NCBI GenBank assembly: GCA_964450845.1 | Contig: CAYVGZ010000001.1 | Location: 84,338 to 148,337, forward strand | Source: an uncultured Candidatus Bathyarchaeia archaeon | Lineage (GTDB): Archaea; Thermoproteota; Bathyarchaeia; Bathyarchaeales; Bathycorpusculaceae | Length of the DNA: 64,000 nt | Direction: 5' to 3' | Part shown: positions 4,073 to 58,677 of the stretch, piece after piece | Numbering within the stretch: position 1 is the first letter of the stretch | How the letters are laid out: each line of letters starts with the position of its first letter | Position numbers and translations under genes: made by a program | Notes under the pieces: model-generated | What the model was told of the DNA's origin: nothing | What the model saw: the letters and a program-made list of their open reading frames with translations, nothing else | The model's database searches: none

Positions 4073-6154
4073 ATGGCTACACTAAAGTCTATTACTAGAG
4101 GTACCGTCACATTAAATAACGTAGTAGGAACTGTTAGTGAATATGTTGATGTGACCGTAACTGCAGTAGACCTAGCTAAAACCTTTGTTAGTTTCACTTA
4201 TAAAGGAGGAACTGATAGAGGCGGTCATGTTCCTATTGCTGGATTCTTTACTAGTACTACTAATCTACGTTTTCAACGTAAAAATTATGATGCTCCTGAT
4301 CAACATTTTACAATTGAATATGAAATAATTGAATGGACGTCAGGTGTTACTGTTCAAACTGGTACAGCTACTAATATCTTTAATTCAGATGGCGATGTAG
4401 ATGTGTCTATTACTAGTGTAAACACATCAAAAGCATTTGCATTTGTTACCATTTATGGTTATTATAGTTGGGATCCTTATCATGCAATTGAATTTGTTTC
4501 TGCTGAGATCACCTCGTCTACTAATTTAAGACTTAAGAACCTATCTGTTGATGAAAATAGTAATACAGTAAAATGGACTGTAGTTGAATATGATTCGTGT
4601 TCAGTTCAGAAAGTTAGTGATGCACCATCTGGTACTAGCGATTCCTATACAATCGCATCAGTTACTACAAATAAAAGTGCAATAATATCTTCATACAGAA
4701 TGAATAATGCTGGTACATCAGACGATAGCGCATTATGGAATTTGTATTTAAGCGATGCTACAACAATTACGTATGCGCGAACAACTGGTGGAACAACTGG
4801 TACTTTTATTGCTTATATAGTTTCATTTACCGATAACTCGTCAGTACAAGCAGGAGAAGTAAGTTTTGGATCTGGCGATACGTCAAAAGATACAACTATT
4901 TCATCAATAAATACAGCAGCATCAATTCATTTTGGTGCTAACTGTGCATGGAATACATTTCAATGTAAGTCTTCTAATTCAGGTGTATTAAGAACTGCAA
5001 CTGCTGCTAAAATAACAAGTACTACTAATCTTAATTCTTCTATTAATCAATCAGGTACTACAGGCACTTTTAGATATCAAGTTATTAGTTTTGATGTAAG
5101 CACGCCTGCTACAAGAAAGTGTTCAGTTCAATATGGTAGCACTACGTTAGCATCAGGAACAACAAGTACAACAGCAGCTATTACATCAATTGATACTGCT
5201 AAGTCATGGTTAGTCTTTTCTACTAAAGGCTCAGGGTCTACAGATGGTACTAATGAACCTGGTAACTCATCAGTTTGTGGTAGTATTAGCTCTGCTACTG
5301 AGCTTTCGTTTGCTCGTACTAATTCTACTATGGGTGTAACAGTACAATGGTTTGTTATAACATTCTCATCTGGAGTATCAGTTCAACGAGGCACTGATAC
5401 TAATGTATCTACAACTGTAGTTAATAAAACTATAACTACAGTAGACACAAATAAATCATTTGTCGTATTATCTACTGCATCTAACGATTTTATGATTAGA
5501 GGTCAAACGATTAGAGCAGATATAACAACAACTACAAATCTTGCACTTGATTCAGATGCACTTGCAGCTAATGAAGTCAGATGGCAAGTTATTCAATATG
5601 ATAATTGCTCAGTTCAGAAAATAGCTAAGACAATATCAAGCGGAACTTCAGCAACAGATACTATTACATCAGTAACACTAACAAAGACATTTTTAGCTCC
5701 TACTGGTAGACATAGTTCTGCTAGTGGATTAGAATATAACTTTTGGCATTTTAGATTGTCAGATGCTACAACATTAACATATGAGTGCGGCATCGCGGAT
5801 GGTACACTTCAAGGTGTTGTTTATGTAGTTTCATTTACAGACGATGCTACAGTTAGCAGATATGTTACTACTGTTGCATCTAGTGATACTACTACAAATA
5901 CGACTGTAACAATAGGTCAAACAACTAGTGCATGGATAGTAGGCCAAGACCATAGTAAAAATTCATCAATTGATGCTGATAGCTGGTGGTATGTTACTGA
6001 TAATGCTAAGGCTATTACGTCAAGTTCAAATGTTGCTAACACTAGATTAGCTAGCGGTTCAGCTGGAGAAACGTACTGGGAATTAATAGAACATACGGCA
6101 TTAAGTATAATGCTTCCTCCTAAGTGGATGCACTTTAGACAGCACAGATTATAA
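4073..6154 (+). CDS. Ser/Thr-rich repeat virion protein (about 8 x 85-aa beta repeats)
   Basis: Recurring ends IIEWTSGVTVQTG / VVEYDSCSVQK / IVSFTDNSSVQAG, echoed as VITFSSGVSVQRG / VIQYDNCSVQK / VVSFTDDATVSR. Confidence 0.75.
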   Translation: MATLKSITRGTVTLNNVVGTVSEYVDVTVTAVDLAKTFVSFTYKGGTDRGGHVPIAGFFTSTTNLRFQRKNYDAPDQHFTIEYEIIEWTSGVTVQTGTATNIFNSDGDVDVSITSVNTSKAFAFVTIYGYYSWDPYHAIEFVSAEITSSTNLRLKNLSVDENSNTVKWTVVEYDSCSVQKVSDAPSGTSDSYTIASVTTNKSAIISSYRMNNAGTSDDSALWNLYLSDATTITYARTTGGTTGTFIAYIVSFTDNSSVQAGEVSFGSGDTSKDTTISSINTAASIHFGANCAWNTFQCKSSNSGVLRTATAAKITSTTNLNSSINQSGTTGTFRYQVISFDVSTPATRKCSVQYGSTTLASGTTSTTAAITSIDTAKSWLVFSTKGSGSTDGTNEPGNSSVCGSISSATELSFARTNSTMGVTVQWFVITFSSGVSVQRGTDTNVSTTVVNKTITTVDTNKSFVVLSTASNDFMIRGQTIRADITTTTNLALDSDALAANEVRWQVIQYDNCSVQKIAKTISSGTSATDTITSVTLTKTFLAPTGRHSSASGLEYNFWHFRLSDATTLTYECGIADGTLQGVVYVVSFTDDATVSRYVTTVASSDTTTNTTVTIGQTTSAWIVGQDHSKNSSIDADSWWYVTDNAKAITSSSNVANTRLASGSAGETYWELIEHTALSIMLPPKWMHFRQHRL

Positions 6155-6164
6155 GGAGAGTTAA

Positions 6165-7883
6165 ATGCAATTTTTAAAACAAAGTACAGCAGTGACTTTG
6201 ATGCTAGGGCCCTTCCTGGACGACACTGACGGTAAAACGTACGAAACAGGTTTAACCTTAGCATCAGGAAATATACGACTATCTAAAAATGGCGGAGCGT
6301 TCGCAACTACTGCGTCAGCTATATCTCTTACTCATAATGAGTGTGGATGGTATAGTGGTACTTTTAATACCACTGACACTAATACAGCTGGACGTTTACT
6401 TGTTACTGTAAGTGGCGCAGGGGCTCTTCCTGTCTGGAGAGAATTTATGGTTCTTCCATCAATGATATATGATTCATTTGTTGGAGGCACAGCTTCTCTT
6501 ACAGTATATCCAACTGGAGTATTTACATCGACAGTTACGGTAAGCGGACTTACTTCTGCAGCACTAGGACAAATTGTCACTAGCGGAACGGCCGCTGGTT
6601 GGAACGATGATATTGTTACTGTATCTGGATTAACATCTGGTGCTCTTGGACAAATTGTAATATCAGGTAATGCAGCTGGCTGGAATACAACTAATGCAAA
6701 CGTAACAGGAATTGCGCCATTAGCTCTATCTCAAATAGTAGCTTCGGGAGACGCAGCAGGTTGGGATGGATACAATCCTGTAACAGTTTCTGGCTTAACA
6801 GCAGGGGCACTATCTCAGATCGTATCTTCTGGCAACGCTGACGGCTGGGCCGACGGAGCAACTGCAGCTGAAGTATGGGCATATGGAACTAAAGCATTAA
6901 CAGCAGCGGTAACAACCTCAGGTCTAACTCCTGAAGCTCTTACACAAATAGTCGCTTCAGGCAATGCTGCAGGCTGGGACGCTACTTCAACAATTACAGA
7001 AGTTACTGTCACTGGCTTAACTTCTGCAGCTCTAACACAGATAGTAGCTAGCGGCAATGCTGATGGTTGGGCAGATGGCGCTACAGCAGCCGAGGTATGG
7101 GGCTACAGCACAAAGGCATTAACAACTCCTGTAACTACATCTGGTCTAACCAAAGAGGCACTTACACAGATTGTAGATAGTGGTAATGCGGCAGGATGGG
7201 CTGACGGCGCCACGGCTGCTGAGGTTTGGGGATATACACCTAAGTCTCTTACTGACGCTGTTACAACTAGTGGTTTAACATCTGACGCTCTATCTCAGAT
7301 AGTTTCTAGTGGTAATGCAGCCAACTGGTCAGGCGTAACACCTGTTACAGACCTAACAACAGTTAATACTAAACTTGATGTAATTTCTGGGTATACTGAT
7401 ACACTAGAATCAAGCATGGTCACAGTACTTGCTAATCAGTCAACTATTAATGGAAACGTACTGGCTCTTCCAGATATTAGTGAGATCATTTCTAGCGGAA
7501 ATGCTGAAGGCTGGAATGCAGACAATTATAGTGTAACTGTTACAGGAATTGCTCCAGCTGCGTTAAGTGAGATAGTTGCTAGCGGTGACGCTGCAGGATG
7601 GAATTCAACAGCCACATTAACAGGTATTGCTCCAGATGTCTGGGCATATGCTAATAGAAGTCTAACAGATACTGGAACGGTTGTAACTGGAATCTTTAAC
7701 GAGATCTTAGCAGGCACATTAGACTTTAGAACAGCTCAACTTGAACAGTGGGCATACGCTGCTAACAACGTTAACATTTCTGGTACAGTGTCTGGTGTAG
7801 CACACGAGTACTTTGACCCAACAGATTCTGGCCTATTCAGACTAGAAGCGACACCAAGTGGAAGAATAAGGACTGACCTATAA
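6165..7883 (+). CDS. Repeat-rich virion (fibre/spike-like) protein
   Basis: Tandem units TVSGLTxxALxQIVxSGNAxGW, some with DGATAAEVWxY; GGAG SD. Confidence 0.75.
   Translation: MQFLKQSTAVTLMLGPFLDDTDGKTYETGLTLASGNIRLSKNGGAFATTASAISLTHNECGWYSGTFNTTDTNTAGRLLVTVSGAGALPVWREFMVLPSMIYDSFVGGTASLTVYPTGVFTSTVTVSGLTSAALGQIVTSGTAAGWNDDIVTVSGLTSGALGQIVISGNAAGWNTTNANVTGIAPLALSQIVASGDAAGWDGYNPVTVSGLTAGALSQIVSSGNADGWADGATAAEVWAYGTKALTAAVTTSGLTPEALTQIVASGNAAGWDATSTITEVTVTGLTSAALTQIVASGNADGWADGATAAEVWGYSTKALTTPVTTSGLTKEALTQIVDSGNAAGWADGATAAEVWGYTPKSLTDAVTTSGLTSDALSQIVSSGNAANWSGVTPVTDLTTVNTKLDVISGYTDTLESSMVTVLANQSTINGNVLALPDISEIISSGNAEGWNADNYSVTVTGIAPAALSEIVASGDAAGWNSTATLTGIAPDVWAYANRSLTDTGTVVTGIFNEILAGTLDFRTAQLEQWAYAANNVNISGTVSGVAHEYFDPTDSGLFRLEATPSGRIRTDL
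6530..7640 (+). repeat. Intragenic protein-level tandem repeats, about 9 units
   Basis: Amino-acid repeats conserved while codons differ, e.g. ggcaacgctgacggctgggcc vs ggcaatgctgatggttgggca vs ggtaatgcggcaggatgggct. Confidence 0.8.
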
Positions 7884-25053: not shown

Positions 25054-25629
25054 TTACTTTTCGTCCGATTCTTCTTGTGTGATCACGTTAAACTTGACCA
25101 ACTCAGTAGGAGTAAGATATCTATTTTTCTTCAATAGATTTTTTACTCTTGTAGGTGAAATACCTAAGCGCTTTGCTGTAAAATTAACATACATTTCGTA
25201 TACTGCTTTCGCATCTTTTCTTTCTTTCATAGTATCACTATATGAGCTTTCACCTGTAGTTGTAATATGTTCGTGTACAAATATCTTACAACTTGGGAAT
25301 AGCACTCTAAGGTCTCCAATTAGGAATAAGAAGAAACCTGCAGATGCGCATTCACCTAAACCAAACGTAGAGACGTGAACGTCAAATGTATCTCTTATAA
25401 ATTGTATAGCGTCTATTATAGCAAAGCAATCTTTTAGATATCCACCTTCTGATGCTATGTAGATACTTAGATTATTTATCTTTTCCTTCTGCCAGTCTGT
25501 TTCAAATAGAGCTTTGATAACATCTCTTGAAACTTCTTCATTAATCTCTCCGATGATATATAGCTGCTTGGTCTTTATATCTCCGTCTTCGATTACCGTA
25601 GTATCTTCATTAGTTCTTTCTTCTGCCAT
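25054..25629 (-). CDS. clpP: ClpP-family protease subunit
   Basis: YIIGEI, IASEGG, GECASAG (Ser nucleophile), IFVHE (His); the triad Asp position reads KKNRYL versus canonical ERDRFM/L. Confidence 0.8.
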   Translation of the reverse strand: MAEERTNEDTTVIEDGDIKTKQLYIIGEINEEVSRDVIKALFETDWQKEKINNLSIYIASEGGYLKDCFAIIDAIQFIRDTFDVHVSTFGLGECASAGFFLFLIGDLRVLFPSCKIFVHEHITTTGESSYSDTMKERKDAKAVYEMYVNFTAKRLGISPTRVKNLLKKNRYLTPTELVKFNVITQEESDEK

Positions 25630-46000: not shown

Positions 46001-46787
46001 ATAGCTCTGTCGAATTTATCTTCAACATGTATTTTATTTCTTCGAGTGTATGAGGATAGTCTTTTCCTATACCAAATCTTAACTTAACTATGTCTTGGAA
46101 TTTCTGAGGTTTTTTTTCAAGTTCTTTTAGAATATTCATTTCCATTCGTTGGAATACATCGTCTCTATCATCTTCAGAACTAACCTGCTCATTGAACTCG
46201 CTTATAAAACTTTCTTCGAAACCAGAAGAGTTTAAGTCTAATAGTACAACTATGTTATCTATCATACTCTCTGTTAGGCTTATTCCTCGCCGTCCTTTTA
46301 GTGCTGTTGCTAACTCAGATGTAAGAGGTTCTCTTTGAAGTTCAGTATAGAGCTCGCTCTTAACTTCGTTGACGTGCTTCATGTTTCTAGCTATGTCTCT
46401 AGGAGCTCTAACGATCTTGTTCTTCTTTATGAAATCTATTATTCGTTTTCTTACATGAAAAAACGCATGGGTAGTAAAGGATGTTTTAAAGGCTACGTCA
46501 TAGCAATCTATAGCTTCTATTAAGCCTAGGTTAGCTTCTTGAAACAAGTCCATAATGGAAACTTCATCATTTAATACAGTCTTGTATTTCATAACATATT
46601 TCATAGCAAAGCCGCCGTTAGACAATACTAGTTTCTCTCTAATCTTATAATAGAGTTTTGGCTTAGGATTTAGAGAAGCCATAGAAGCCAACTGCGTTAG
46701 TAATGCGTCGTTCTCTTCCCTAGTTGGCCTAGGATATTTGTCTATGTAAGTACTGACAGATCGTCTCAATTCAAAATATTCTTCCAT
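45999..46787 (-). CDS. Phage RNA polymerase sigma-70-family factor
   Basis: Region 2 DLFQEANLGLIEAID.YD....FTTHAFFHVR; IVRAP; region 4 IVKLRFG...TLEEI. Confidence 0.88.
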   Translation of the reverse strand: MEEYFELRRSVSTYIDKYPRPTREENDALLTQLASMASLNPKPKLYYKIREKLVLSNGGFAMKYVMKYKTVLNDEVSIMDLFQEANLGLIEAIDCYDVAFKTSFTTHAFFHVRKRIIDFIKKNKIVRAPRDIARNMKHVNEVKSELYTELQREPLTSELATALKGRRGISLTESMIDNIVVLLDLNSSGFEESFISEFNEQVSSEDDRDDVFQRMEMNILKELEKKPQKFQDIVKLRFGIGKDYPHTLEEIKYMLKINSTEL

Positions 46788-51562: not shown

Positions 51563-54001
51563 CTAGGAGTGCTCCTCTTCAAGATCCTCTTTAGGGATCG
51601 TGTCTAATTTCTTTGCACTAGTAGGCCTAGAATCAAAGTCGTCTCCGAATAGATTTAGTTGTAAATTTTTTTTTATTCCAAACTTATCTAGTGCTTTCAA
51701 AACCAAGTCCTCATAGTAATTAAGGTCTAGTTGCGATATATCGTCGACCCATTTAACGAATGTATAATTCTTTCCATTGATTTTATAATACGGTTTTAGT
51801 TCTGGAAATGGTAATGGTTTCTTTGTTACTACATAATTGATCTGGGTACCTTGTGTGGCAACCTGCCCAGTTTTCATTTCCATTTGTTTACCAAGGAATA
51901 ATCTCATGTCATACGCGTCATCATATTCTCTTGGTTCCTTTGAAAGCTTAACGCGTTCTTCAAAGTCTTCCAGCTTTGCATTCTTAAAGTCTAAGGATTT
52001 CTGTAATACTTCATCCTTTGGCAAGCCATTGAATACATGTTGTATAGCTAGCTGTATTGCTCGGTCTACTATGTGTGCTGCACGAGATGCTTTAAATGAT
52101 GAACCATGTATTAGATACTTTCCATTCTCTTCAACTACATAGTTTTTCATAGCATAGAAGTAAGCTCTGCCAAAGTCATCTAACTCCATTTGCATGTAGT
52201 TATCTTTGATTCCAAACTTAGATTCTATTAGCTTGTCTAGCCATGTATTAATCTCTTTTTCTGATACTTCTTTATCTAGGATTAATCCATCTGTATCTAA
52301 CTCTATTAGATTATCTCGTAGTTTTCTAATTACATTTCCAGTAGTCCATCTGCACATAGCAGTAACCATTACTGCAGACATCATGTCTCCATAGGTACTA
52401 CTCTTAAGCCCCAAGATTCCGTATATTGAGTTGAGGATAACCTTGATGGCGTACTGTTGAGAATCCAGCGCGGGTCGCTCCGATTCTGTAGCGGTCTTAA
52501 GCTGCTTTTTAATCTTAACACGCTCAGCACGAAGCTTCGATATTTCTGTCTTGAGTACACCTTCGACGTCGTTCCTGACCTTAATAAGGATATCACACCG
52601 AAAGTTAGCATCTGGAATCCTATACCAGTTGTATTTCGAGTCTTTCTTGAATGTGTATTTACCAGTGTACGGAAGCTTCTTGACGAAAGATGTGGTATCT
52701 GGCCCGAGGTTCCAAGTTTGGATGCTGCTGGGATACATGCTGGAAAAGTCCAGTTTATAGACTTGAGGGAAATAACCATCTTTATATAGTCCTACTAATG
52801 CTCCTTCATACTTCGTTCCAATTTCTGCTATAGACCCATTGCTGGCATTGTATCTTTGAAAGTTGCTATCTGTAGCAATAAGACCTTTCTTTTCCATGTT
52901 TCGGGCTAGGAATAACTTTGGTACGAAGCTGGAGTACATTGTTATAATGCTATTGAGTGGAACACTTAGCATCTCTGCTAGAGTTATACAGTTTCTCATG
53001 TAGACATGGCCAACCCACTCGGTTCTGTATATGTCATCATCTAAGTATGAGTAGAGTTTATCTGAGTCCTTCTTGTATAAGTCCACTAGATTTTCTACGT
53101 GGTCTTTTACTTCTATATCTTCTAATGCTTCTTCTCTCCATATTCCATTTATTATTTCAGTTCGCTTTGCTTTATAGAACCTAGCAATTTCTTTTAGAGA
53201 CCTAGATTTGATACCAAACAGAGTTTGGTCTTTGGATACTCCAGCATTGGAATTATATATATCAAAATGTATTCTTCCAGGAATTCTTAACTGGTCTTCA
53301 ATGAAATATGGTGCCTTGTGTTGGCGACCAATCCCTTTCATACTTATATCTAGTAGCTTACACCTATCCATGATATATGGAAAGTCGAAATCTAGCGAGT
53401 TATACCCAGCTACAATGTCTGGATCGTTCTTCTCTACATCATCTATAAATTCAAGCAGTATCTTTTTGTCACCGTCAGTGCTTTGTCCAATACTTGTTCC
53501 TTTCAAATCAAATCCTTTTATGATCTTATGTTTGAGCTTTTCTTTTGTACCATTGTTCTTATAAATCCAAATACTATATCCTATACATAAGATTTCATTT
53601 GATATTGACTTAGGAAAGAATCCATCACCCTTTGTTGCTACTTCTATATCAAAGAACATTATCTTTAGATCATTTGTATGAGGAAAGCCAAGAAGATAAT
53701 CTGGCCTAGATATATACAGCTGTTCGATAAAGCTATTAGCTTGTATAAACCGTTGTCTATCTAAGCTTCTCTTTCTAAATTCTGTATATCCTTCTAGGTC
53801 TGGGAACTGAAGTCTAAGATATTCTCTTTCTTCATATTCTGGAACCTTAATCCACTTTTCTACTGGCGATTGAACGTCAGGAAACATGTCTTTTTGTGCT
53901 AAGACAAATGGTTTCATTGGGTGTTGGACCCGCTGTTCTAATCCATTTGCATATATAACTAATTCATCATTTGTTGGTATTACCGATAAAGGTATTTTCA
54001 T
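51563..54001 (-). CDS. Family B DNA polymerase
   Basis: Exonuclease FDIEV, GYNSLDFDF, Y...D; polymerase DFSSMYPS, KVILNSIYG, ELDTDG, KNY. Confidence 0.95.
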   Translation of the reverse strand: MKIPLSVIPTNDELVIYANGLEQRVQHPMKPFVLAQKDMFPDVQSPVEKWIKVPEYEEREYLRLQFPDLEGYTEFRKRSLDRQRFIQANSFIEQLYISRPDYLLGFPHTNDLKIMFFDIEVATKGDGFFPKSISNEILCIGYSIWIYKNNGTKEKLKHKIIKGFDLKGTSIGQSTDGDKKILLEFIDDVEKNDPDIVAGYNSLDFDFPYIMDRCKLLDISMKGIGRQHKAPYFIEDQLRIPGRIHFDIYNSNAGVSKDQTLFGIKSRSLKEIARFYKAKRTEIINGIWREEALEDIEVKDHVENLVDLYKKDSDKLYSYLDDDIYRTEWVGHVYMRNCITLAEMLSVPLNSIITMYSSFVPKLFLARNMEKKGLIATDSNFQRYNASNGSIAEIGTKYEGALVGLYKDGYFPQVYKLDFSSMYPSSIQTWNLGPDTTSFVKKLPYTGKYTFKKDSKYNWYRIPDANFRCDILIKVRNDVEGVLKTEISKLRAERVKIKKQLKTATESERPALDSQQYAIKVILNSIYGILGLKSSTYGDMMSAVMVTAMCRWTTGNVIRKLRDNLIELDTDGLILDKEVSEKEINTWLDKLIESKFGIKDNYMQMELDDFGRAYFYAMKNYVVEENGKYLIHGSSFKASRAAHIVDRAIQLAIQHVFNGLPKDEVLQKSLDFKNAKLEDFEERVKLSKEPREYDDAYDMRLFLGKQMEMKTGQVATQGTQINYVVTKKPLPFPELKPYYKINGKNYTFVKWVDDISQLDLNYYEDLVLKALDKFGIKKNLQLNLFGDDFDSRPTSAKKLDTIPKEDLEEEHS

Positions 54002-54333
54002 ATTATCTCCCAGTCTTTCGTATCTCTGGCCGTAATGGCCTTAAGAGCATTACCTCGCGGGATTAATAATGCAGTTCCGTCTTCGTTTACGTGCTCGCAC
54101 TTATAGATTTTATATCCATGCTTATATTCCTGCCCAGATATAAATTTTTCATCAAATATTTTAATGTGTCCACCGATTCTTCTTGTTATAACTTTGGTAA
54201 ATGTTCTAGGTTCCCAGTTAATTCTTTTACCAGTTAGATGTTCAAAGATTTCTACTGTAAATGAGCAGTTCTTTTGAGTTGAAGGATCGTATGTGCATTC
54301 CGTTACTCTTCCATCAAAATACATCCATATCAT
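53998..54333 (-). CDS. Hypothetical protein
   Basis: 111 aa; coupled at both ends (TAATG, ATGA). Confidence 0.6.
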   Translation of the reverse strand: MIWMYFDGRVTECTYDPSTQKNCSFTVEIFEHLTGKRINWEPRTFTKVITRRIGGHIKIFDEKFISGQEYKHGYKIYKCEHVNEDGTALLIPRGNALKAITARDTKDWEII

Positions 54334-54914
54334 TATAACATCTTCCTTAAGTTAATAGAGGAAGGTTTTCCTCCAGCTAGTAGTAGCAATCTTTCTGATG
54401 TTAATCTCCACCTAACTGCGTCTATAGTCTGTGCTGTAGGATAATTCCTATATAAAGTTGTTTCTTTCTCTATCATTTGCTTTATTATCTCTTGTAATTC
54501 AAAGCAAGTATTTTGAGTTAGATTATCTATGGAATCATCCTTACGCATAAACCTATAGTAATAGCTAAGATATATAACCTTGTCTAGTCTTGCTTTCATT
54601 TCTCCTTGATCTGAGCCTAATAAAATATTTGCAACTAAAGAGTTTCTGAAGTGTGCTAGGTCATAGTTTTCTATCCAGTTGAAGTCTCTTTCTCTTCTTC
54701 TGAATGAGAATCTATATCCTTCATTTTCAACTACTAGAAATGGTTTTTCTCCTGCGAGATTATTCCAGTTTGCTGCTATATGTTCTCTCATGGCCTCATT
54801 ATTAGCTGTGTAGAATCTTAATAACTCTTCTCGCTTTAAAATGAGATCTTGAAAGTGTAGCCTAGATTGAGAACCGATATCTTCGATTACTTTATCTAGT
54901 CCTATGATTTCCAT
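54333..54914 (-). CDS. Hypothetical helical protein directly downstream of the Ubl gene
   Basis: ATG at 54914, one base after the Ubl TAG. Confidence 0.6.
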   Translation of the reverse strand: MEIIGLDKVIEDIGSQSRLHFQDLILKREELLRFYTANNEAMREHIAANWNNLAGEKPFLVVENEGYRFSFRRRERDFNWIENYDLAHFRNSLVANILLGSDQGEMKARLDKVIYLSYYYRFMRKDDSIDNLTQNTCFELQEIIKQMIEKETTLYRNYPTAQTIDAVRWRLTSERLLLLAGGKPSSINLRKML

Positions 54915-54915
54915 T

Positions 54916-55143
54916 CTAACCGCCAATCAGTTGATTAGTAACACTAACCTCATGTTTAACTTTCTTGAGGTCGTCTTCTTGAATAACTTCTCCACCAAAG
55001 TGTTTTCCATCGATAAAGATAGTTCGTTTATTCTCTATTTCAGTATTCAAGATTCTTATTGCATCTGCTAATGCATACTCTTCGGATTCATATCCTTTAG
55101 TTGGTATGGTACGTTCTATTCTAATCTTTTTTTCTTCACTCAC
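54916..55143 (-). CDS. Ubiquitin-like (beta-grasp) protein ending in Gly-Gly
   Basis: 75 aa; strand-strand-helix-strand(IFIDG)...EDDL...EVSVTNQLIGG*; GGAGGAGG SD and GTG start overlapping the upstream stop. Confidence 0.8.
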   Translation of the reverse strand: MSEEKKIRIERTIPTKGYESEEYALADAIRILNTEIENKRTIFIDGKHFGGEVIQEDDLKKVKHEVSVTNQLIGG

Positions 55144-57484
55144 TTAGTTCCTCCTCCAGATTATAGATTGTTCCTGCTATTACTGAGTCATTCTTCAGTG
55201 CTAATAACTTAGATATAACAGTATCATATCCAATGTTCGATTTAATATTACTTTGATCTATCATGCACACGTATTTTCCGTTCTCATATACATTCTTTGC
55301 ACCCTTCTTTAATTCAGGGTCTATAAATACGTATGAATCCTTGTTATCATAGGCAATAATATATCTGTGACCAGACATACCAACAAGGGTTATAGCAGTC
55401 ATGTTCCTATTTCCTTTAGAGTTCCAATAAGAACAAAACTCTCCTTGTACGTCTGTAACTTTTTTTGTCAGAAATGCTTGAGATCTTTCCTTAAAGGCCT
55501 CATATGCTGAGTCTATTAAAAACTTATATCTAACGTAGTCTTTTGAACTTTCTACAGATTCAAATATAATCTTTTGTATCTTGTCTTCACAGCTAGTAAC
55601 CTGTTCTCCAATAAACTTAGCAAAGAGTATGTTAACTAGTTCTTTTCCCTTAATTGGAATCTCTATCGTGTCTAAGATCATCACATATTTAGATCTACCC
55701 TTAAGCTTTTTAAATCTAAATAGCTTGTTTGAACTACCAAGCTTAAGCTCATAACCAGAAGTCATTCCAATGTATACAGATAGACCTAACTTACCAATGT
55801 TAGATATAAATTTGTTTGCTTCCTCTTGGCTTCTATAACATGTTAATTCTCTTAGAACAGTTAACACTTCATTCCTATTAAATCTTTGACCATTGAGATA
55901 GGTAAGCTTTGCTTTATTAGCAGTAGTTTTAATCTCTAGCTTAATCTCTATACAGTCGTTTAATTTAATAGTTATTACAGAGTTTTCAGCAGAATACGAG
56001 TTAACTCTGTTCTTAAGTTCGGTAAAGATCTTGTCTAGAATATCGTTTAAGATAGTCTCTTCACTTGTCTCGCCTCTGTAGTATGTTATCAGGTATGATT
56101 CAAATGTTTGGAACAGTCTCTGCTTTAGTAACTCGTCATCTATAGCTATACTGAAATCATTGTATGAGACTTTTCCTTCTGAATGGTTATACTTAATCTT
56201 ATCACTTATATTGACATCAGAACCAACTGCCTTCTGTTTCTGTACAATATACTTATATTCGTCTACCATCTTCTTTAAAGCCTTTAGTCTTATCTGTAGT
56301 GGCTTTACCTCTGTAGAATCCTTTGATACAGCTGACTCGAATGAGTCGTAGTTCATATGTATCTTGCCTTTTATAATGGTAGTTCCAGTTAGCTTAGTTA
56401 GATTCTTAGTTAGAACATCAACATACTTTTCTAGTACTGTTTTAATATGTTCTATTGGCTCTTTATCTATTCGAGGGTCTGGTCCGATTATTATATCGTA
56501 ATGACCACCATGTCTAGGTATACTTAATATAATTCTGCCTTCATCTACAAAGTTATATGGCATTCGTCCAAAGTTTGTTATCTTAGCATCATCATATGTC
56601 CAAGGTCTTGTTTCGGCCATCCATAAGTCTTCAAGATTACTAAGTTTAAGCGCATCTCCTTGTACTCCTGCCTTAGCAGTAGCTACTAATGTTGATTGCT
56701 TAATCTCATCCATACCATCAAATGGTAGTATCTTTATTTGATAAGTTCTGGTATTGTTTCCTTGAAGAACCTTTGTAATTTTACCTATATATACAGCTCC
56801 GCTTTTTATGCAGTTGTGAACTACATTTAATCTTAGAGGATCACATTCAAGCTTCTTTGCGAAAGCGGATATTATTTCTCTTATCTCTTTTCTTTTTAGT
56901 TCCTTCACACTATTGAAGTGCTCAAATATACTATTGAGCTCTTTTGTAGTAGATCCATCGGTCTGCTTTGATATGCTTATGTTCTTTGTTTTTCCATTGG
57001 AAGACATAAACTCACATTGATCAGTAAATCTTTTCTTTGATACTACCTGTCCCATAAGAGAATCAGCAATAATATAATCTATCATATCGTCAGGATAGGC
57101 ATCAAACCCCTCATTCTTATTTCTGTAGTCGTCAGTCGTAGTAGACATCCATTGTAGTATGTCTTCGTCCCCTGAGTCTAATGCCTTTGCTTCTATTCCC
57201 TTTTCAATCTTTTCATTAATTGTCCAAGTTAGAATAGTAAATGGATACCATCGTCCAGCAGATTTGTTGATCAAGTGAAGATTACTTTTTTTGTCATTAG
57301 TAATCTTAATTAACCTAAATCCTGTTTCTTTTCCCTCAAAACTGTCAGTAGCTTCGCACACCGTTTTAATTGCTACCTCGGCATTGTTAACACTATCTAC
57401 GTCTAGCTTATAGTTTAACAAGGTATCTAATACTTCACGAGGTGTGCTAACTTTTTGTTCTGTAGCTTCGCCTTTTTGTCTCAT
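55136..57484 (-). CDS. 782-aa protein between E1 and Ubl, with a putative E2-like C-terminal domain
   Basis: Intact ORF; C-terminal GKYVCMIDQ...DTVISKLLALKND recalls the E2 G.vC...helix arrangement (inference). Confidence 0.5.
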   Translation of the reverse strand: MRQKGEATEQKVSTPREVLDTLLNYKLDVDSVNNAEVAIKTVCEATDSFEGKETGFRLIKITNDKKSNLHLINKSAGRWYPFTILTWTINEKIEKGIEAKALDSGDEDILQWMSTTTDDYRNKNEGFDAYPDDMIDYIIADSLMGQVVSKKRFTDQCEFMSSNGKTKNISISKQTDGSTTKELNSIFEHFNSVKELKRKEIREIISAFAKKLECDPLRLNVVHNCIKSGAVYIGKITKVLQGNNTRTYQIKILPFDGMDEIKQSTLVATAKAGVQGDALKLSNLEDLWMAETRPWTYDDAKITNFGRMPYNFVDEGRIILSIPRHGGHYDIIIGPDPRIDKEPIEHIKTVLEKYVDVLTKNLTKLTGTTIIKGKIHMNYDSFESAVSKDSTEVKPLQIRLKALKKMVDEYKYIVQKQKAVGSDVNISDKIKYNHSEGKVSYNDFSIAIDDELLKQRLFQTFESYLITYYRGETSEETILNDILDKIFTELKNRVNSYSAENSVITIKLNDCIEIKLEIKTTANKAKLTYLNGQRFNRNEVLTVLRELTCYRSQEEANKFISNIGKLGLSVYIGMTSGYELKLGSSNKLFRFKKLKGRSKYVMILDTIEIPIKGKELVNILFAKFIGEQVTSCEDKIQKIIFESVESSKDYVRYKFLIDSAYEAFKERSQAFLTKKVTDVQGEFCSYWNSKGNRNMTAITLVGMSGHRYIIAYDNKDSYVFIDPELKKGAKNVYENGKYVCMIDQSNIKSNIGYDTVISKLLALKNDSVIAGTIYNLEEELSE

Positions 57485-57493
57485 GTTTATTCC

Positions 57494-58063
57494 TTAGAAG
57501 TGGATCATTAGGTCGTTCGGTAGTTTCTTTGTTCTTGTATATGATAAGACTGCTTGAGCAAGCGCAGCAGCTACTATCACGTTACCGTATTCGATTTCTT
57601 CCTTAGCTATCTGAAACGGATTCTGACAGCTTTGGCTCTCGCTTGATTCGTCTATTGTGGAGATATAGTTCTCTGTTTCGCTTGAGAATATTCCAATCAT
57701 TTTACCATTTGCCCTAGCATCTATAAATGGTATTCCTGATGTTACAAATGCATCGTGAGCGTTACGTCTTATCAGATTATTATCAGCACATAGAATGATA
57801 AGACTAAAGCCATTTAAATCTTTTCTTTCTATTCGTTTGTTCTCGAATGCTACATTTAAGCACCTAAATTCTAGAGCGGAGGTCTTGTATTCTCCTATGT
57901 CTCCAGGTTCAAAGTTCTGATATAGAATGTTTTTCTTCTCTACCTTATCATCATCAAAGAACTTGAAGTTAACATCTTTTATTTGCTCTAGATCAATTAG
58001 CCTGTTAATATGTTCTGCGAAGTACGATCCAATTCCTCCACAACCTACTACTGCGACGTTCAT
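57494..58063 (-). CDS. ThiF/E1-like adenylating enzyme
   Basis: VVGCGGIG, DDDKVEKKNILYQNF, ILCADN, FIDAR, candidate thioester Cys in SQSCQ; no CxxC Zn motifs. Confidence 0.88.
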   Translation of the reverse strand: MNVAVVGCGGIGSYFAEHINRLIDLEQIKDVNFKFFDDDKVEKKNILYQNFEPGDIGEYKTSALEFRCLNVAFENKRIERKDLNGFSLIILCADNNLIRRNAHDAFVTSGIPFIDARANGKMIGIFSSETENYISTIDESSESQSCQNPFQIAKEEIEYGNVIVAAALAQAVLSYTRTKKLPNDLMIHF

Positions 58064-58677
58064 ACTTGCTCCTTTAATCGTTTGAGCCCAAGTTCAGCTA
58101 TAACTACTGCATCAGCTATGTGCTCAAACTCACCTTTATTATATATATTTAAAATTCCAGCTTCCTGTACTCTGCTGCAATTTATAATGAACTTCTTGTT
58201 ATTGGTTCCTATTTGGTTACTATAGTTTTTAACTACGTAATCTATCACTTCATTCTTTGTAGCCTTGGCCTTGCCAGTAACCTGTTTATGAACCTCAGTT
58301 GGCGTCACAGGAGCACGCATCCATGACCCAGCATCTATATTTTCAAACATCTGCTGCGATAATACTGATGCTATGACTCCTTTAGCCATGCCTAAGCAGG
58401 CAGCTGCTCGTTGACTCTGAGATCCTCCAGGTACTTCAAATGCAAATATTTTAATACCAGATCTATTCATTAGAGTATTCATGAACATCTTTACTCCAGA
58501 GTATAAGATAGATGCTCGGTCAAGATCTATTAGACTGGACGACTTAGGAAGCTTTGGATTCTTTATCAGCCGCGAAGTCTCAATACATGGCTTGATGCCC
58601 TTACGATCCTGTCGTAAGATGACGCATCCGCAGAAATTAAAGGAGCAATCAATTGCTCCGACGTAAATTTTAGCCAT
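58060..58677 (-). CDS. RuvC-like Holliday junction resolvase
   Basis: GAIDCSFNFCG, AFEVP, PTEVHKQVTGKAKATKNEV, HIADAV. Confidence 0.75.
   Translation of the reverse strand: MAKIYVGAIDCSFNFCGCVILRQDRKGIKPCIETSRLIKNPKLPKSSSLIDLDRASILYSGVKMFMNTLMNRSGIKIFAFEVPGGSQSQRAAACLGMAKGVIASVLSQQMFENIDAGSWMRAPVTPTEVHKQVTGKAKATKNEVIDYVVKNYSNQIGTNNKKFIINCSRVQEAGILNIYNKGEFEHIADAVVIAELGLKRLKEQV

Follow-up and report, generated by a model that had tools for sequence, protein, structure and literature searches.

A 64,000-nucleotide stretch of DNA (the window; positions 84338-148337 of the 196,613-bp contig C1, GenBank CAYVGZ010000001.1, binned in the archaeal metagenome-assembled genome (MAG) GCA_964450845.1) carries three adjoining minus-strand genes, which encode a 189-amino-acid (aa) enzyme of the ThiF/E1 family (the mini-E1), a 782-aa orphan protein and a 75-aa ubiquitin-like protein (Ubl) ending in Gly-Gly. 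This cassette is probably a phage-owned pathway for activating and transferring a ubiquitin-like modifier, that is, for tagging proteins; the conjugation is what we infer. Very likely, the E1 and the Ubl form a functional activating pair.

The three open reading frames (ORFs) lie, on the minus strand, at the positions given in the original prediction, which had proposed such an operon. The stop of the RuvC-like gene overlaps the E1 start by 4 nt. As predicted, 9 nt separate the E1 stop from the ATG of the 782-aa gene, and the GTG start of the Ubl overlaps the stop of the 782-aa gene in GTGAGTGA, with a Shine-Dalgarno sequence, GGAGGAGG, just upstream. Homologues begin with Met at the corresponding place, in support of the GTG start. 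The Ubl ends ...VTNQLIGG-TAG, and the ATG of the next gene (54914) comes 1 nt past that stop. The genes for the E1, the 782-aa protein and the Ubl are thus translationally coupled, and a scan for promoters and terminators inside the block gave no signal exceeding shuffled controls. The cassette does lie between the RuvC-like gene and the gene for family B DNA polymerase (PolB); PolB is not its immediate neighbour, as genes for 193-aa and 111-aa proteins intervene. Among the contig's ORFs of at least 50 aa, only 4 of 1052 end in GG; this rarity, together with the synteny of the trio in every relative examined, argues that the trio is not due to chance.

Loci related to the cassette are referred to by number (L002 and upward). 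The order E1, ~780-aa protein, Ubl (VTNxLIGG-stop), ~195 aa, ~110 aa, PolB is kept in L002-L007, even where the large proteins are only 34-39% identical. Besides the window, the trio was found in 12 close loci (L002-L007, L011, L012, L014 and L026, plus L013, which repeats L007, and L029, which repeats L012). IMG/VR accounts for four loci with the trio and the species genomes for one. A close E1 was present in only one of 185,579 species genomes, on a contig of an Omnitrophota MAG. Co-occurrence was measured by searching metagenome contigs with the C-terminal domain of the large protein alone, which gave 38 loci. A match to the Ubl hidden Markov model lies immediately downstream in 36 of these, and all 36 end GG-stop; the two exceptions are fragments of contigs, 1.7-2.4 kb long. 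In 20 loci the contig continues beyond the large gene on the relevant side, and every one of these carries the E1; in the other 18, which lack it, the contig stops within the large gene. The co-conservation expected of the three genes is thereby borne out.

Two architectures recur. In type A, that of the window's clade, E1, large protein and Ubl occur with no JAB peptidase. In type B (L008-L010, L064, L065, L067, L069 and L071) the order is large protein (658-1476 aa), Ubl, JAB, E1. Six of the type B Ubls end at GG; in two loci they extend past it, by an acidic extension in L010 and by ~150 residues in L009. A JAB gene beside an already mature Ubl suggests removal of the Ubl from a product and not only trimming. 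No JAB peptidase was found anywhere on the 196.6-kb contig, which extends to its whole length the absence noted before. One JAMM-like HxHx7SxxD string on the contig is a coincidence, as it falls within a ClpP-family serine protease (25054-25629, minus strand; PF00574, E 3e-19).

Two distant viral contigs, L015 (412-666, 5992-6546, 7148-7735) and L016 (891-1481, 1765-2343), carry a mini-E1 32-37% identical to that of the window and a protein with a JAMM motif. A small ORF of L015 ends ...AIVGG-NV. No large protein with the C-terminal module lies within 6 kb in either, and an E2-less variant of the cassette may exist in such contigs.

Identity of the close loci to the window copies is 52-77% for the E1, 39-87% for the Ubl and 41-75% for the exonuclease region of PolB, compared with 32-67% for the large protein and 31-56% for the 193-aa neighbour. 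The E1 and Ubl therefore diverge at a slow rate similar to that of the PolB exonuclease domain. Genes for anti-defence are usually patchy accessory genes. Slow divergence in a fixed place is instead the behaviour of a core gene set, and the suggestion that the system serves to jam a host Ubl defence gains no support from a cassette that evolves slowly at a fixed site upstream of PolB. This site is shared by all 11 distinct relatives with a polymerase region to compare.

Mini-E1 and Ubl

The mini-E1 matches Pfam PF00899 with 49.7 bits against a cut-off of 28.1 (Table 1) and has the motifs GCGGIGS (invariant), FDDD, K60, CADN with Asp94, R99 and Cys146 (SCQ, 57626-57628). A profile of 25 homologues searched against PDB matched ThiF (1zud, E 3.5e-4), and also MccB and UBA5, with modest E-values. 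In an alignment with E. coli ThiF, taken from MG1655, the columns of ThiF D59, N67, K83, D127, R132 and C184 are invariant among the E1s, and Cys146 aligns with Cys184; it is invariant also in the distant E1s of L009, L010 and L015. Canonical E1s bear the catalytic cysteine at the crossover-loop site, and ThiF Cys184 is the acyl-disulfide cysteine. The enzyme is thus ThiF/E1-like, as had been predicted. The predicted absence of CxxC zinc motifs is likewise confirmed: both ThiF motifs are missing from the aligned E1, which ends ~45 residues ahead of the second and has nothing to match the last ~45 residues of ThiF. Cys146 had been called a lone cysteine, which is wrong, since the E1 has four (C8, C68, C92 and C146), with C92 and C146 invariant. 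We know of no smaller described E1 than this 189-aa protein, which lacks both zinc site and arginine finger. Its homologues make up no fewer than 148 clusters; among the 120 listed, identity to it is 54-84%, and several come from contigs 107-437 kb long.

The AlphaFold2 model of the Ubl, made with 25 sequences, has a mean predicted local distance difference test (pLDDT) score of 88.7 and the order beta-beta-alpha-beta-beta-(short alpha)-beta. In each of three structure searches the 50 best matches were all beta-grasp proteins or domains. Among the Foldseek matches listed, all are ubiquitin-type modifiers or Ubl domains (ubiquitin, NEDD8, SUMO, ISG15, UFM1), with probabilities of 0.89-1.0, E from 4e-3 to 3e-2 and template modelling (TM) scores of about 0.45-0.5. 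Two VIA-align listings contain beta-grasp proteins only, among them MoaD and the Ubl from a bacterial E1-E2-Ubl complex; the matches span 62-72 of the 75 residues, with Z 4-5.4. The fold alone, as modelled, does not tell a ubiquitin-type modifier from a carrier of the ThiS/MoaD type. No match to the Ubl was found in Pfam, NCBIfam, PHROGs or PADLOC.

Residues N70, L72, I73, G74 and G75 are invariant in the 25 aligned Ubls (Gly74 at 54922-54924, Gly75 at 54919-54921). All 25 end GG-stop, as do 36 of 36 metagenome homologues, so that models and alignments agree with the beta-grasp fold and free GG end first proposed. The last Lys or Arg of the Ubl is K63 and trypsin would leave a remnant of 12 residues, which makes the diGly-remnant proteomics suggested in the original prediction unsuitable in that form.

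Activation in the manner of MccB, with the E1 preparing the Ubl C-terminus for a non-protein acceptor (a nucleotide or an amine) and a modified protein or peptide-nucleotide as product in place of an isopeptide, we judge highly improbable. The E1 profile does match MccB at E 5e-4, and the enzyme is minimal and lacks the usual arginines; the match is, however, limited to the nucleotide-binding N-terminal 70 residues, and the invariant cysteine of SCQ and an invariant cysteine in the 782-aa partner point to thioester chemistry.

The large partner protein and the proposed pathway

No match to the 782-aa protein was found in Pfam, NCBIfam, PHROGs or PADLOC. Only 14 homologues came from a word-seeded search; with an exhaustive search by profile, 46 representatives reached E<1e-30. 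In about 100 more proteins (620-1400 aa) the similarity is confined to positions ~500-776 and invariably falls at the C-terminal end of the matched protein; ten of them were checked against Pfam and showed no domain. The N-terminal ~490 residues are specific to the clade, while the C-terminal ~290 form a module common to more than 100 other phage proteins. Residues 5-94 have a PAS-like match (Z about 5), and the remainder of the N-terminal half has no convincing one.

The module was aligned for 103 members, and counts for each column use the ungapped sequences. Cys740 (55265-55267, GKYVCMIDQSN) is kept in 98/98 and Cys549 in 95/99, being invariant in the close clade. D766 (98/98) and N765 (96/98) are similarly constant, and N531, E539, G577 and R/K759 nearly so. 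The AlphaFold2 model of the whole protein (pLDDT 76.7) has a helix at 647-678, four strands at 682-721, a short hairpin, the Cys740 loop, which is of low confidence, and a helix at 753-764, DTVISKLLALKND. Cys740 is thereby placed, in the model, as the catalytic cysteine of an E2 would be, between the four-strand meander and the crossover helix.

Exhaustive structure comparison by VIA-align gave, for the C-terminal region, the UEV domain of Vps23 first (Z 5.4, 97 residues), followed by FANCL (Z 4.7), the BubB E2 9eav_D (Z 4.5, residues 668-772), the E2 domain of Cap2 (Z 4.4), the UEV domain of VPS37A (Z 4.2) and a Plasmodium E2 (Z 4.1). 9eav_D is the BubB E2 of Citrobacter (10.1101/2024.11.21.623953). 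These six matches of UBC/UEV fold, which include the bacterial E2s BubB and Cap2, span residues ~657-782; a seventh, the tandem-RWD protein Knl1, covers 579-766, and one more, a human Mediator chain, could not be classified. Because the matches agree among themselves, and because of the topology and the invariant Cys740, residues ~647-782 look like a putative E2-like domain (UBC/UEV/RWD), with fold evidence that is weak. Of the earlier proposal that the protein is an E2, the invariant Cys740 and the JAB-bearing relatives speak in favour and the weakness of the fold matches against. Foldseek with the 782-aa model found nothing in PDB at E below 0.001, and a sliding-clamp match (E 0.02, probability 0.15) was dismissed as noise. 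The same model matched only three unnamed viral proteins in BFVD, and a search of the ESM Atlas with both parts gave no usable match. A papain-like protease was considered for the module and rejected, as its only semi-conserved His (position 571) is Tyr across the window's clade.

From family and fold assignments, conserved residues and gene linkage, all directly observed, we infer adenylation, both thioester steps, isopeptide formation and a choice of substrate by the N-terminal region. The Ubl is made in mature form, since its gene ends GG-stop, and the mini-E1 would use ATP to adenylate its Gly75. Cys146, the equivalent of ThiF Cys184, would capture the acyl-adenylate, and the Ubl would be handed on to the 782-aa protein, at Cys740 of its UBC-like C-terminal domain; Cys549 may be a second relay or a resolving cysteine. 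The lineage-variable N-terminal ~490 residues would pick the substrate, and the Ubl would finally be attached to a lysine in a protein of the phage or of the host. In type B loci the JAB peptidase would serve for trimming, removal or both, and the window's clade would have lost it. We count as a supporting analogy that the E2s of the bacterial Bil system are proposed to recognise targets directly, with no E3 (10.1101/2024.11.21.623953).

Conceivable, if quite unlikely, is a vertically inherited phage pathway that modifies the phage replication machinery or a host replication-fork factor, with E2 and E3 in one chain and a Cys740-Cys549 relay. It would then parallel, in a virus, the ubiquitination and SUMOylation of PCNA, and bacterial anti-phage Ubl systems might have drawn on it as a reservoir.

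Several observations weigh against protein conjugation. The first ~28 residues of ThiF (the N-terminal helix with its Arg) have no counterpart in the E1; the arginine of NLxRQ (ThiF Arg70), which like that of the helix serves the ATP phosphates, is Tyr48 in every member of the E1 family; and the E1 is a single domain without a UFD-like domain that would recruit an E2. Its nearest solved relatives, ThiF and MccB, are sulfur-carrier and peptide-activating enzymes. For the partner, searches with Pfam, NCBIfam, PADLOC and a PDB-sequence profile (E up to 10) identified no E2 family, no HPN motif precedes Cys740, the loop following Cys740 is modelled at pLDDT below 50, and Z values of 4.1-5.4 lie under the VIA-align reliability guide of about 8. 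No cultured phage was found with the cassette: among 50,697 phage records there was no match to the block (blastn) or to the 782-aa protein (tblastn). Finally, trios of E1, Ubl and JAB are known also in sulfur-carrier pathways (CysO/Mec+, QbsE/QbsD).

A sulfur-carrier role is accordingly to be reckoned with, and we regard it as unlikely. Here a host persulfide would make a Ubl thiocarboxylate, and the 782-aa protein would transfer the sulfur by a Cys549/Cys740 relay to an acceptor in replication, whether nucleotide, DNA, tRNA or small molecule. Such a role would suit an E1 whose closest solved relative is ThiF, whose Cys146 aligns with Cys184 and whose single domain offers no docking domain for an E2. 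It would also suit a cassette placed amid replication genes, and in relatives amid genes of nucleotide metabolism (RNR, dUTPase, ThyX). JAB peptidases also serve sulfur-carrier Ubls, and in L006 a radical SAM gene (6080-6991) lies directly upstream of the E1. That neighbour, however, occurs in this one relative only and its position is not conserved; Pfam and NCBIfam recognise no sulfurtransferase, PP-loop or Fe-S motif in the large protein; and the conserved end of the large protein best matches E2-type folds. The original prediction had pointed to a lack of sulfur partners. Rhodanese is in fact absent from the whole bin, and PP-loop ATPases occur on host contigs only, with none on C1, so the statement stands for rhodanese and PP-loop thiolase on the contig; ThiG, MoaE and cysteine desulfurase were not searched for genome-wide.

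It is also possible, and in our view improbable, that the Ubl is joined to the 782-aa protein and to nothing else, by a thioester or an auto-isopeptide bond, as a switch or an assembly step of a replication-associated factor. The strict 1:1:1 linkage with translational coupling, the fixed position beside PolB in the window's clade and the fact that no E3 or substrate gene was identified would all fit such a self-contained complex. N-terminal regions that vary (in proteins of 620-1476 aa) upstream of a conserved C-terminal module suit target selection better, however, and the JAB peptidase in relatives implies turnover. Protein tagging through the E2-like domain remains the reading that we prefer.

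Contig and neighbouring genes

C1 is read as a bacteriophage genome wrongly placed in an archaeal MAG. Its phage genes include those for a large terminase (Terminase_6N), a primase-helicase, a UvrD-type helicase and PolB, and the only sigma-70 gene of the bin lies on it (window 46416-46631). The bin has the archaeal markers ribosomal protein S28e (on contig C50), S7/S12 genes and an ATP-dependent ligase, and the GC content of C1 is 37.7% versus 41-42% in the other large contigs. The terminase, the sole sigma-70 gene and the lower GC on C1, in a bin with S28e, are the grounds for this assignment. The first ~50-100 bases of C1 are found again at position 196,511, and because of this recurrence near its end the contig looks circular. 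Four relatives of its E1 are held by IMG/VR viral contigs of 147-230 kb.

The genes around the cassette are listed in Table 1. No match to the 193-aa protein was found in Pfam, NCBIfam, PHROGs or PADLOC, and none to the 111-aa protein in Pfam or PHROGs. Among ten close loci compared, a homologue of the 193-aa protein comes directly after the Ubl in nine, and PolB lies downstream of the cassette in all ten (nine of them distinct, as L013 repeats L007); a gene of 106-138 aa occupies the position of the 111-aa gene in L002-L007.

Table 1. Features of the cassette and its surroundings (window coordinates)
Feature	Coordinates	Strand	Evidence
RuvC-like resolvase	58060..58677	-	phrog_159 E 8e-14; Pfam RuvC E 0.003, below cut-off
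Mini-E1, 189 aa, ThiF family	57494..58063	-	PF00899 E 3.4e-13
782-aa orphan protein	55136..57484	-	ORF; matched by no family library
Putative E2-like domain (UBC/UEV/RWD superfold), residues ~647-782	55139..55546	-	VIA-align, topology, Cys740
Cys549 codon, second conserved cysteine of C-terminal module	55838..55840	-	Kept in 95/99
75-aa ubiquitin-like beta-grasp protein, GTG start	54916..55143	-	AlphaFold2 pLDDT 88.7
193-aa conserved neighbour (true start ATG 54914)	54333..54914	-	Homologues at close loci; no family match
111-aa conserved gene between cassette and PolB	53998..54333	-	Similar-sized genes in L002-L007
Family B DNA polymerase, downstream anchor	51563..54001	-	PF00136 E 6e-27, PF03104 E 2e-15, phrog_262 E 1e-47

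The PolB of some relatives (L002, 11571-15200; L004, 9267-12758; L005, 11026-14445) is 1139-1209 aa long and contains an intein with homing-endonuclease domains; the PolB of the window (812 aa) has no intein.

The 193-aa protein ends ...LAGGKPSSINLRKML. A C-terminal motif, [IL]-N-[LF]-R-[RK]-x(0-2)-stop, is found on varied proteins, only within the cassette. Its carriers are the 193-aa neighbour in the window (54333-54350) and in L004 (8351-8944), and ORFs of 65-94 aa inserted beside the large gene in L006 (7586-7801, 10125-10322), L007 (7564-7824, 10090-10311) and L012 (6528-6812). The motif occurs 9 times among 1574 locus ORFs, always in the cassette, and once among the 1052 contig ORFs. It is reminiscent of the LRLRGG tail of ubiquitin minus the GG, and could be a docking peptide.

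Elsewhere in the window, 576-22726 on the plus strand is a co-directional block whose ten largest ORFs encode 300-1163 aa. These ten were searched against Pfam, and six also against PHROGs, with no match except a radical SAM domain (1731-2633). If this block is the virion module, it is very distant from described phages.

Comparison with known systems

The cassette resembles Bil, Bub and CBASS Cap2 in outline and is a member of none of them, given its single-domain E1 and an E2-like part without a sequence link to their E2s. Bil, made up of BilA (Ubl), BilB (E2), BilC (JAB) and BilD (E1), is a bacterial anti-phage defence (10.1101/2024.11.21.623953; PMC10557695). Both sets combine a beta-grasp Ubl that ends in GG with an E1 of ThiF type and a Cys-bearing partner of E2 type (putatively so in the phage); both lack an E3, the Bil E2 being thought to choose targets itself; and a JAB occurs with the phage set only in distant relatives. 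Unlike Bil, the cassette is phage-encoded and fixed beside PolB in every close relative examined; its E1 is a single 189-aa domain in place of the IAD-AAD-CYS architecture; its E2-like domain forms the end of a 782-aa orphan in which another Cys is conserved; and its clade has no JAB. PADLOC defence models match only the nucleotide-binding loop of the E1.

Bub (6E/DUF6527) is likewise a diverged bacterial set of E1, E2 and Ubl, and its BubB is among the structural matches of the large protein (10.1101/2024.11.21.623953). Bub uses serine oxyesters and BubE/DUF6527, whereas the phage cassette lacks DUF6527 and has invariant cysteines in its E1 and its E2-like domain. With ThiF/ThiS and MoeB/MoaD the cassette shares the E1 core residues, the Cys184 equivalent and a GG-ended beta-grasp partner; it differs in the missing CxxC motifs and N-terminal helix, the change of Arg70 to Tyr, the added E2-like partner and the lack of any ThiG, MoaE, rhodanese or PP-loop partner seen on the phage. 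The best NCBIfam match of the E1 is to the PRTRC system of plasmids and integrative and conjugative elements (TIGR03736, PRTRC_ThiF, E 7.6e-12), but at 45.1 bits against a cut-off of 144.75 and covering only E1 residues 1-107. Other PRTRC models had no match among the six proteins scanned (E1, Ubl, 782-aa, 193-aa, PolB and RuvC-like), ParB not being sought.

The lambda/T1 tail-assembly protein TAPI with the JAB-NlpC protein TAPK is also a phage beta-grasp protein with a conserved C-terminal Gly and a JAB peptidase, but that system is a tail module with no E1 or E2, while here an E1 is present in a replication module; it is the sole phage Ubl treated in Iyer et al. 2006 (PMC1779556). A full-text literature search and the overviews of jumbo phages (PMC7824862, PMC13282480) describe no phage E1/E2/Ubl system, and virome papers treat viral ThiF only as an auxiliary gene for 'sulfur relay'.

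In the literature searched, prokaryotic E1/E2/Ubl conjugation (Bil, CBASS Cap2, Bub) is described as a cellular weapon against phages. Here uncultured phages of 120-440 kb, which make up a large clade, keep the same logic as a conserved and slowly evolving component, and the partner of the E1 represents a family of more than 100 orphan proteins with a common two-cysteine C-terminal module. If conjugation is confirmed, bacterial viruses would tag proteins with a ubiquitin-like modifier of their own, and the cassette would define a new family of E2 type and supply a minimal E1/Ubl pair for protein-ligation tools.

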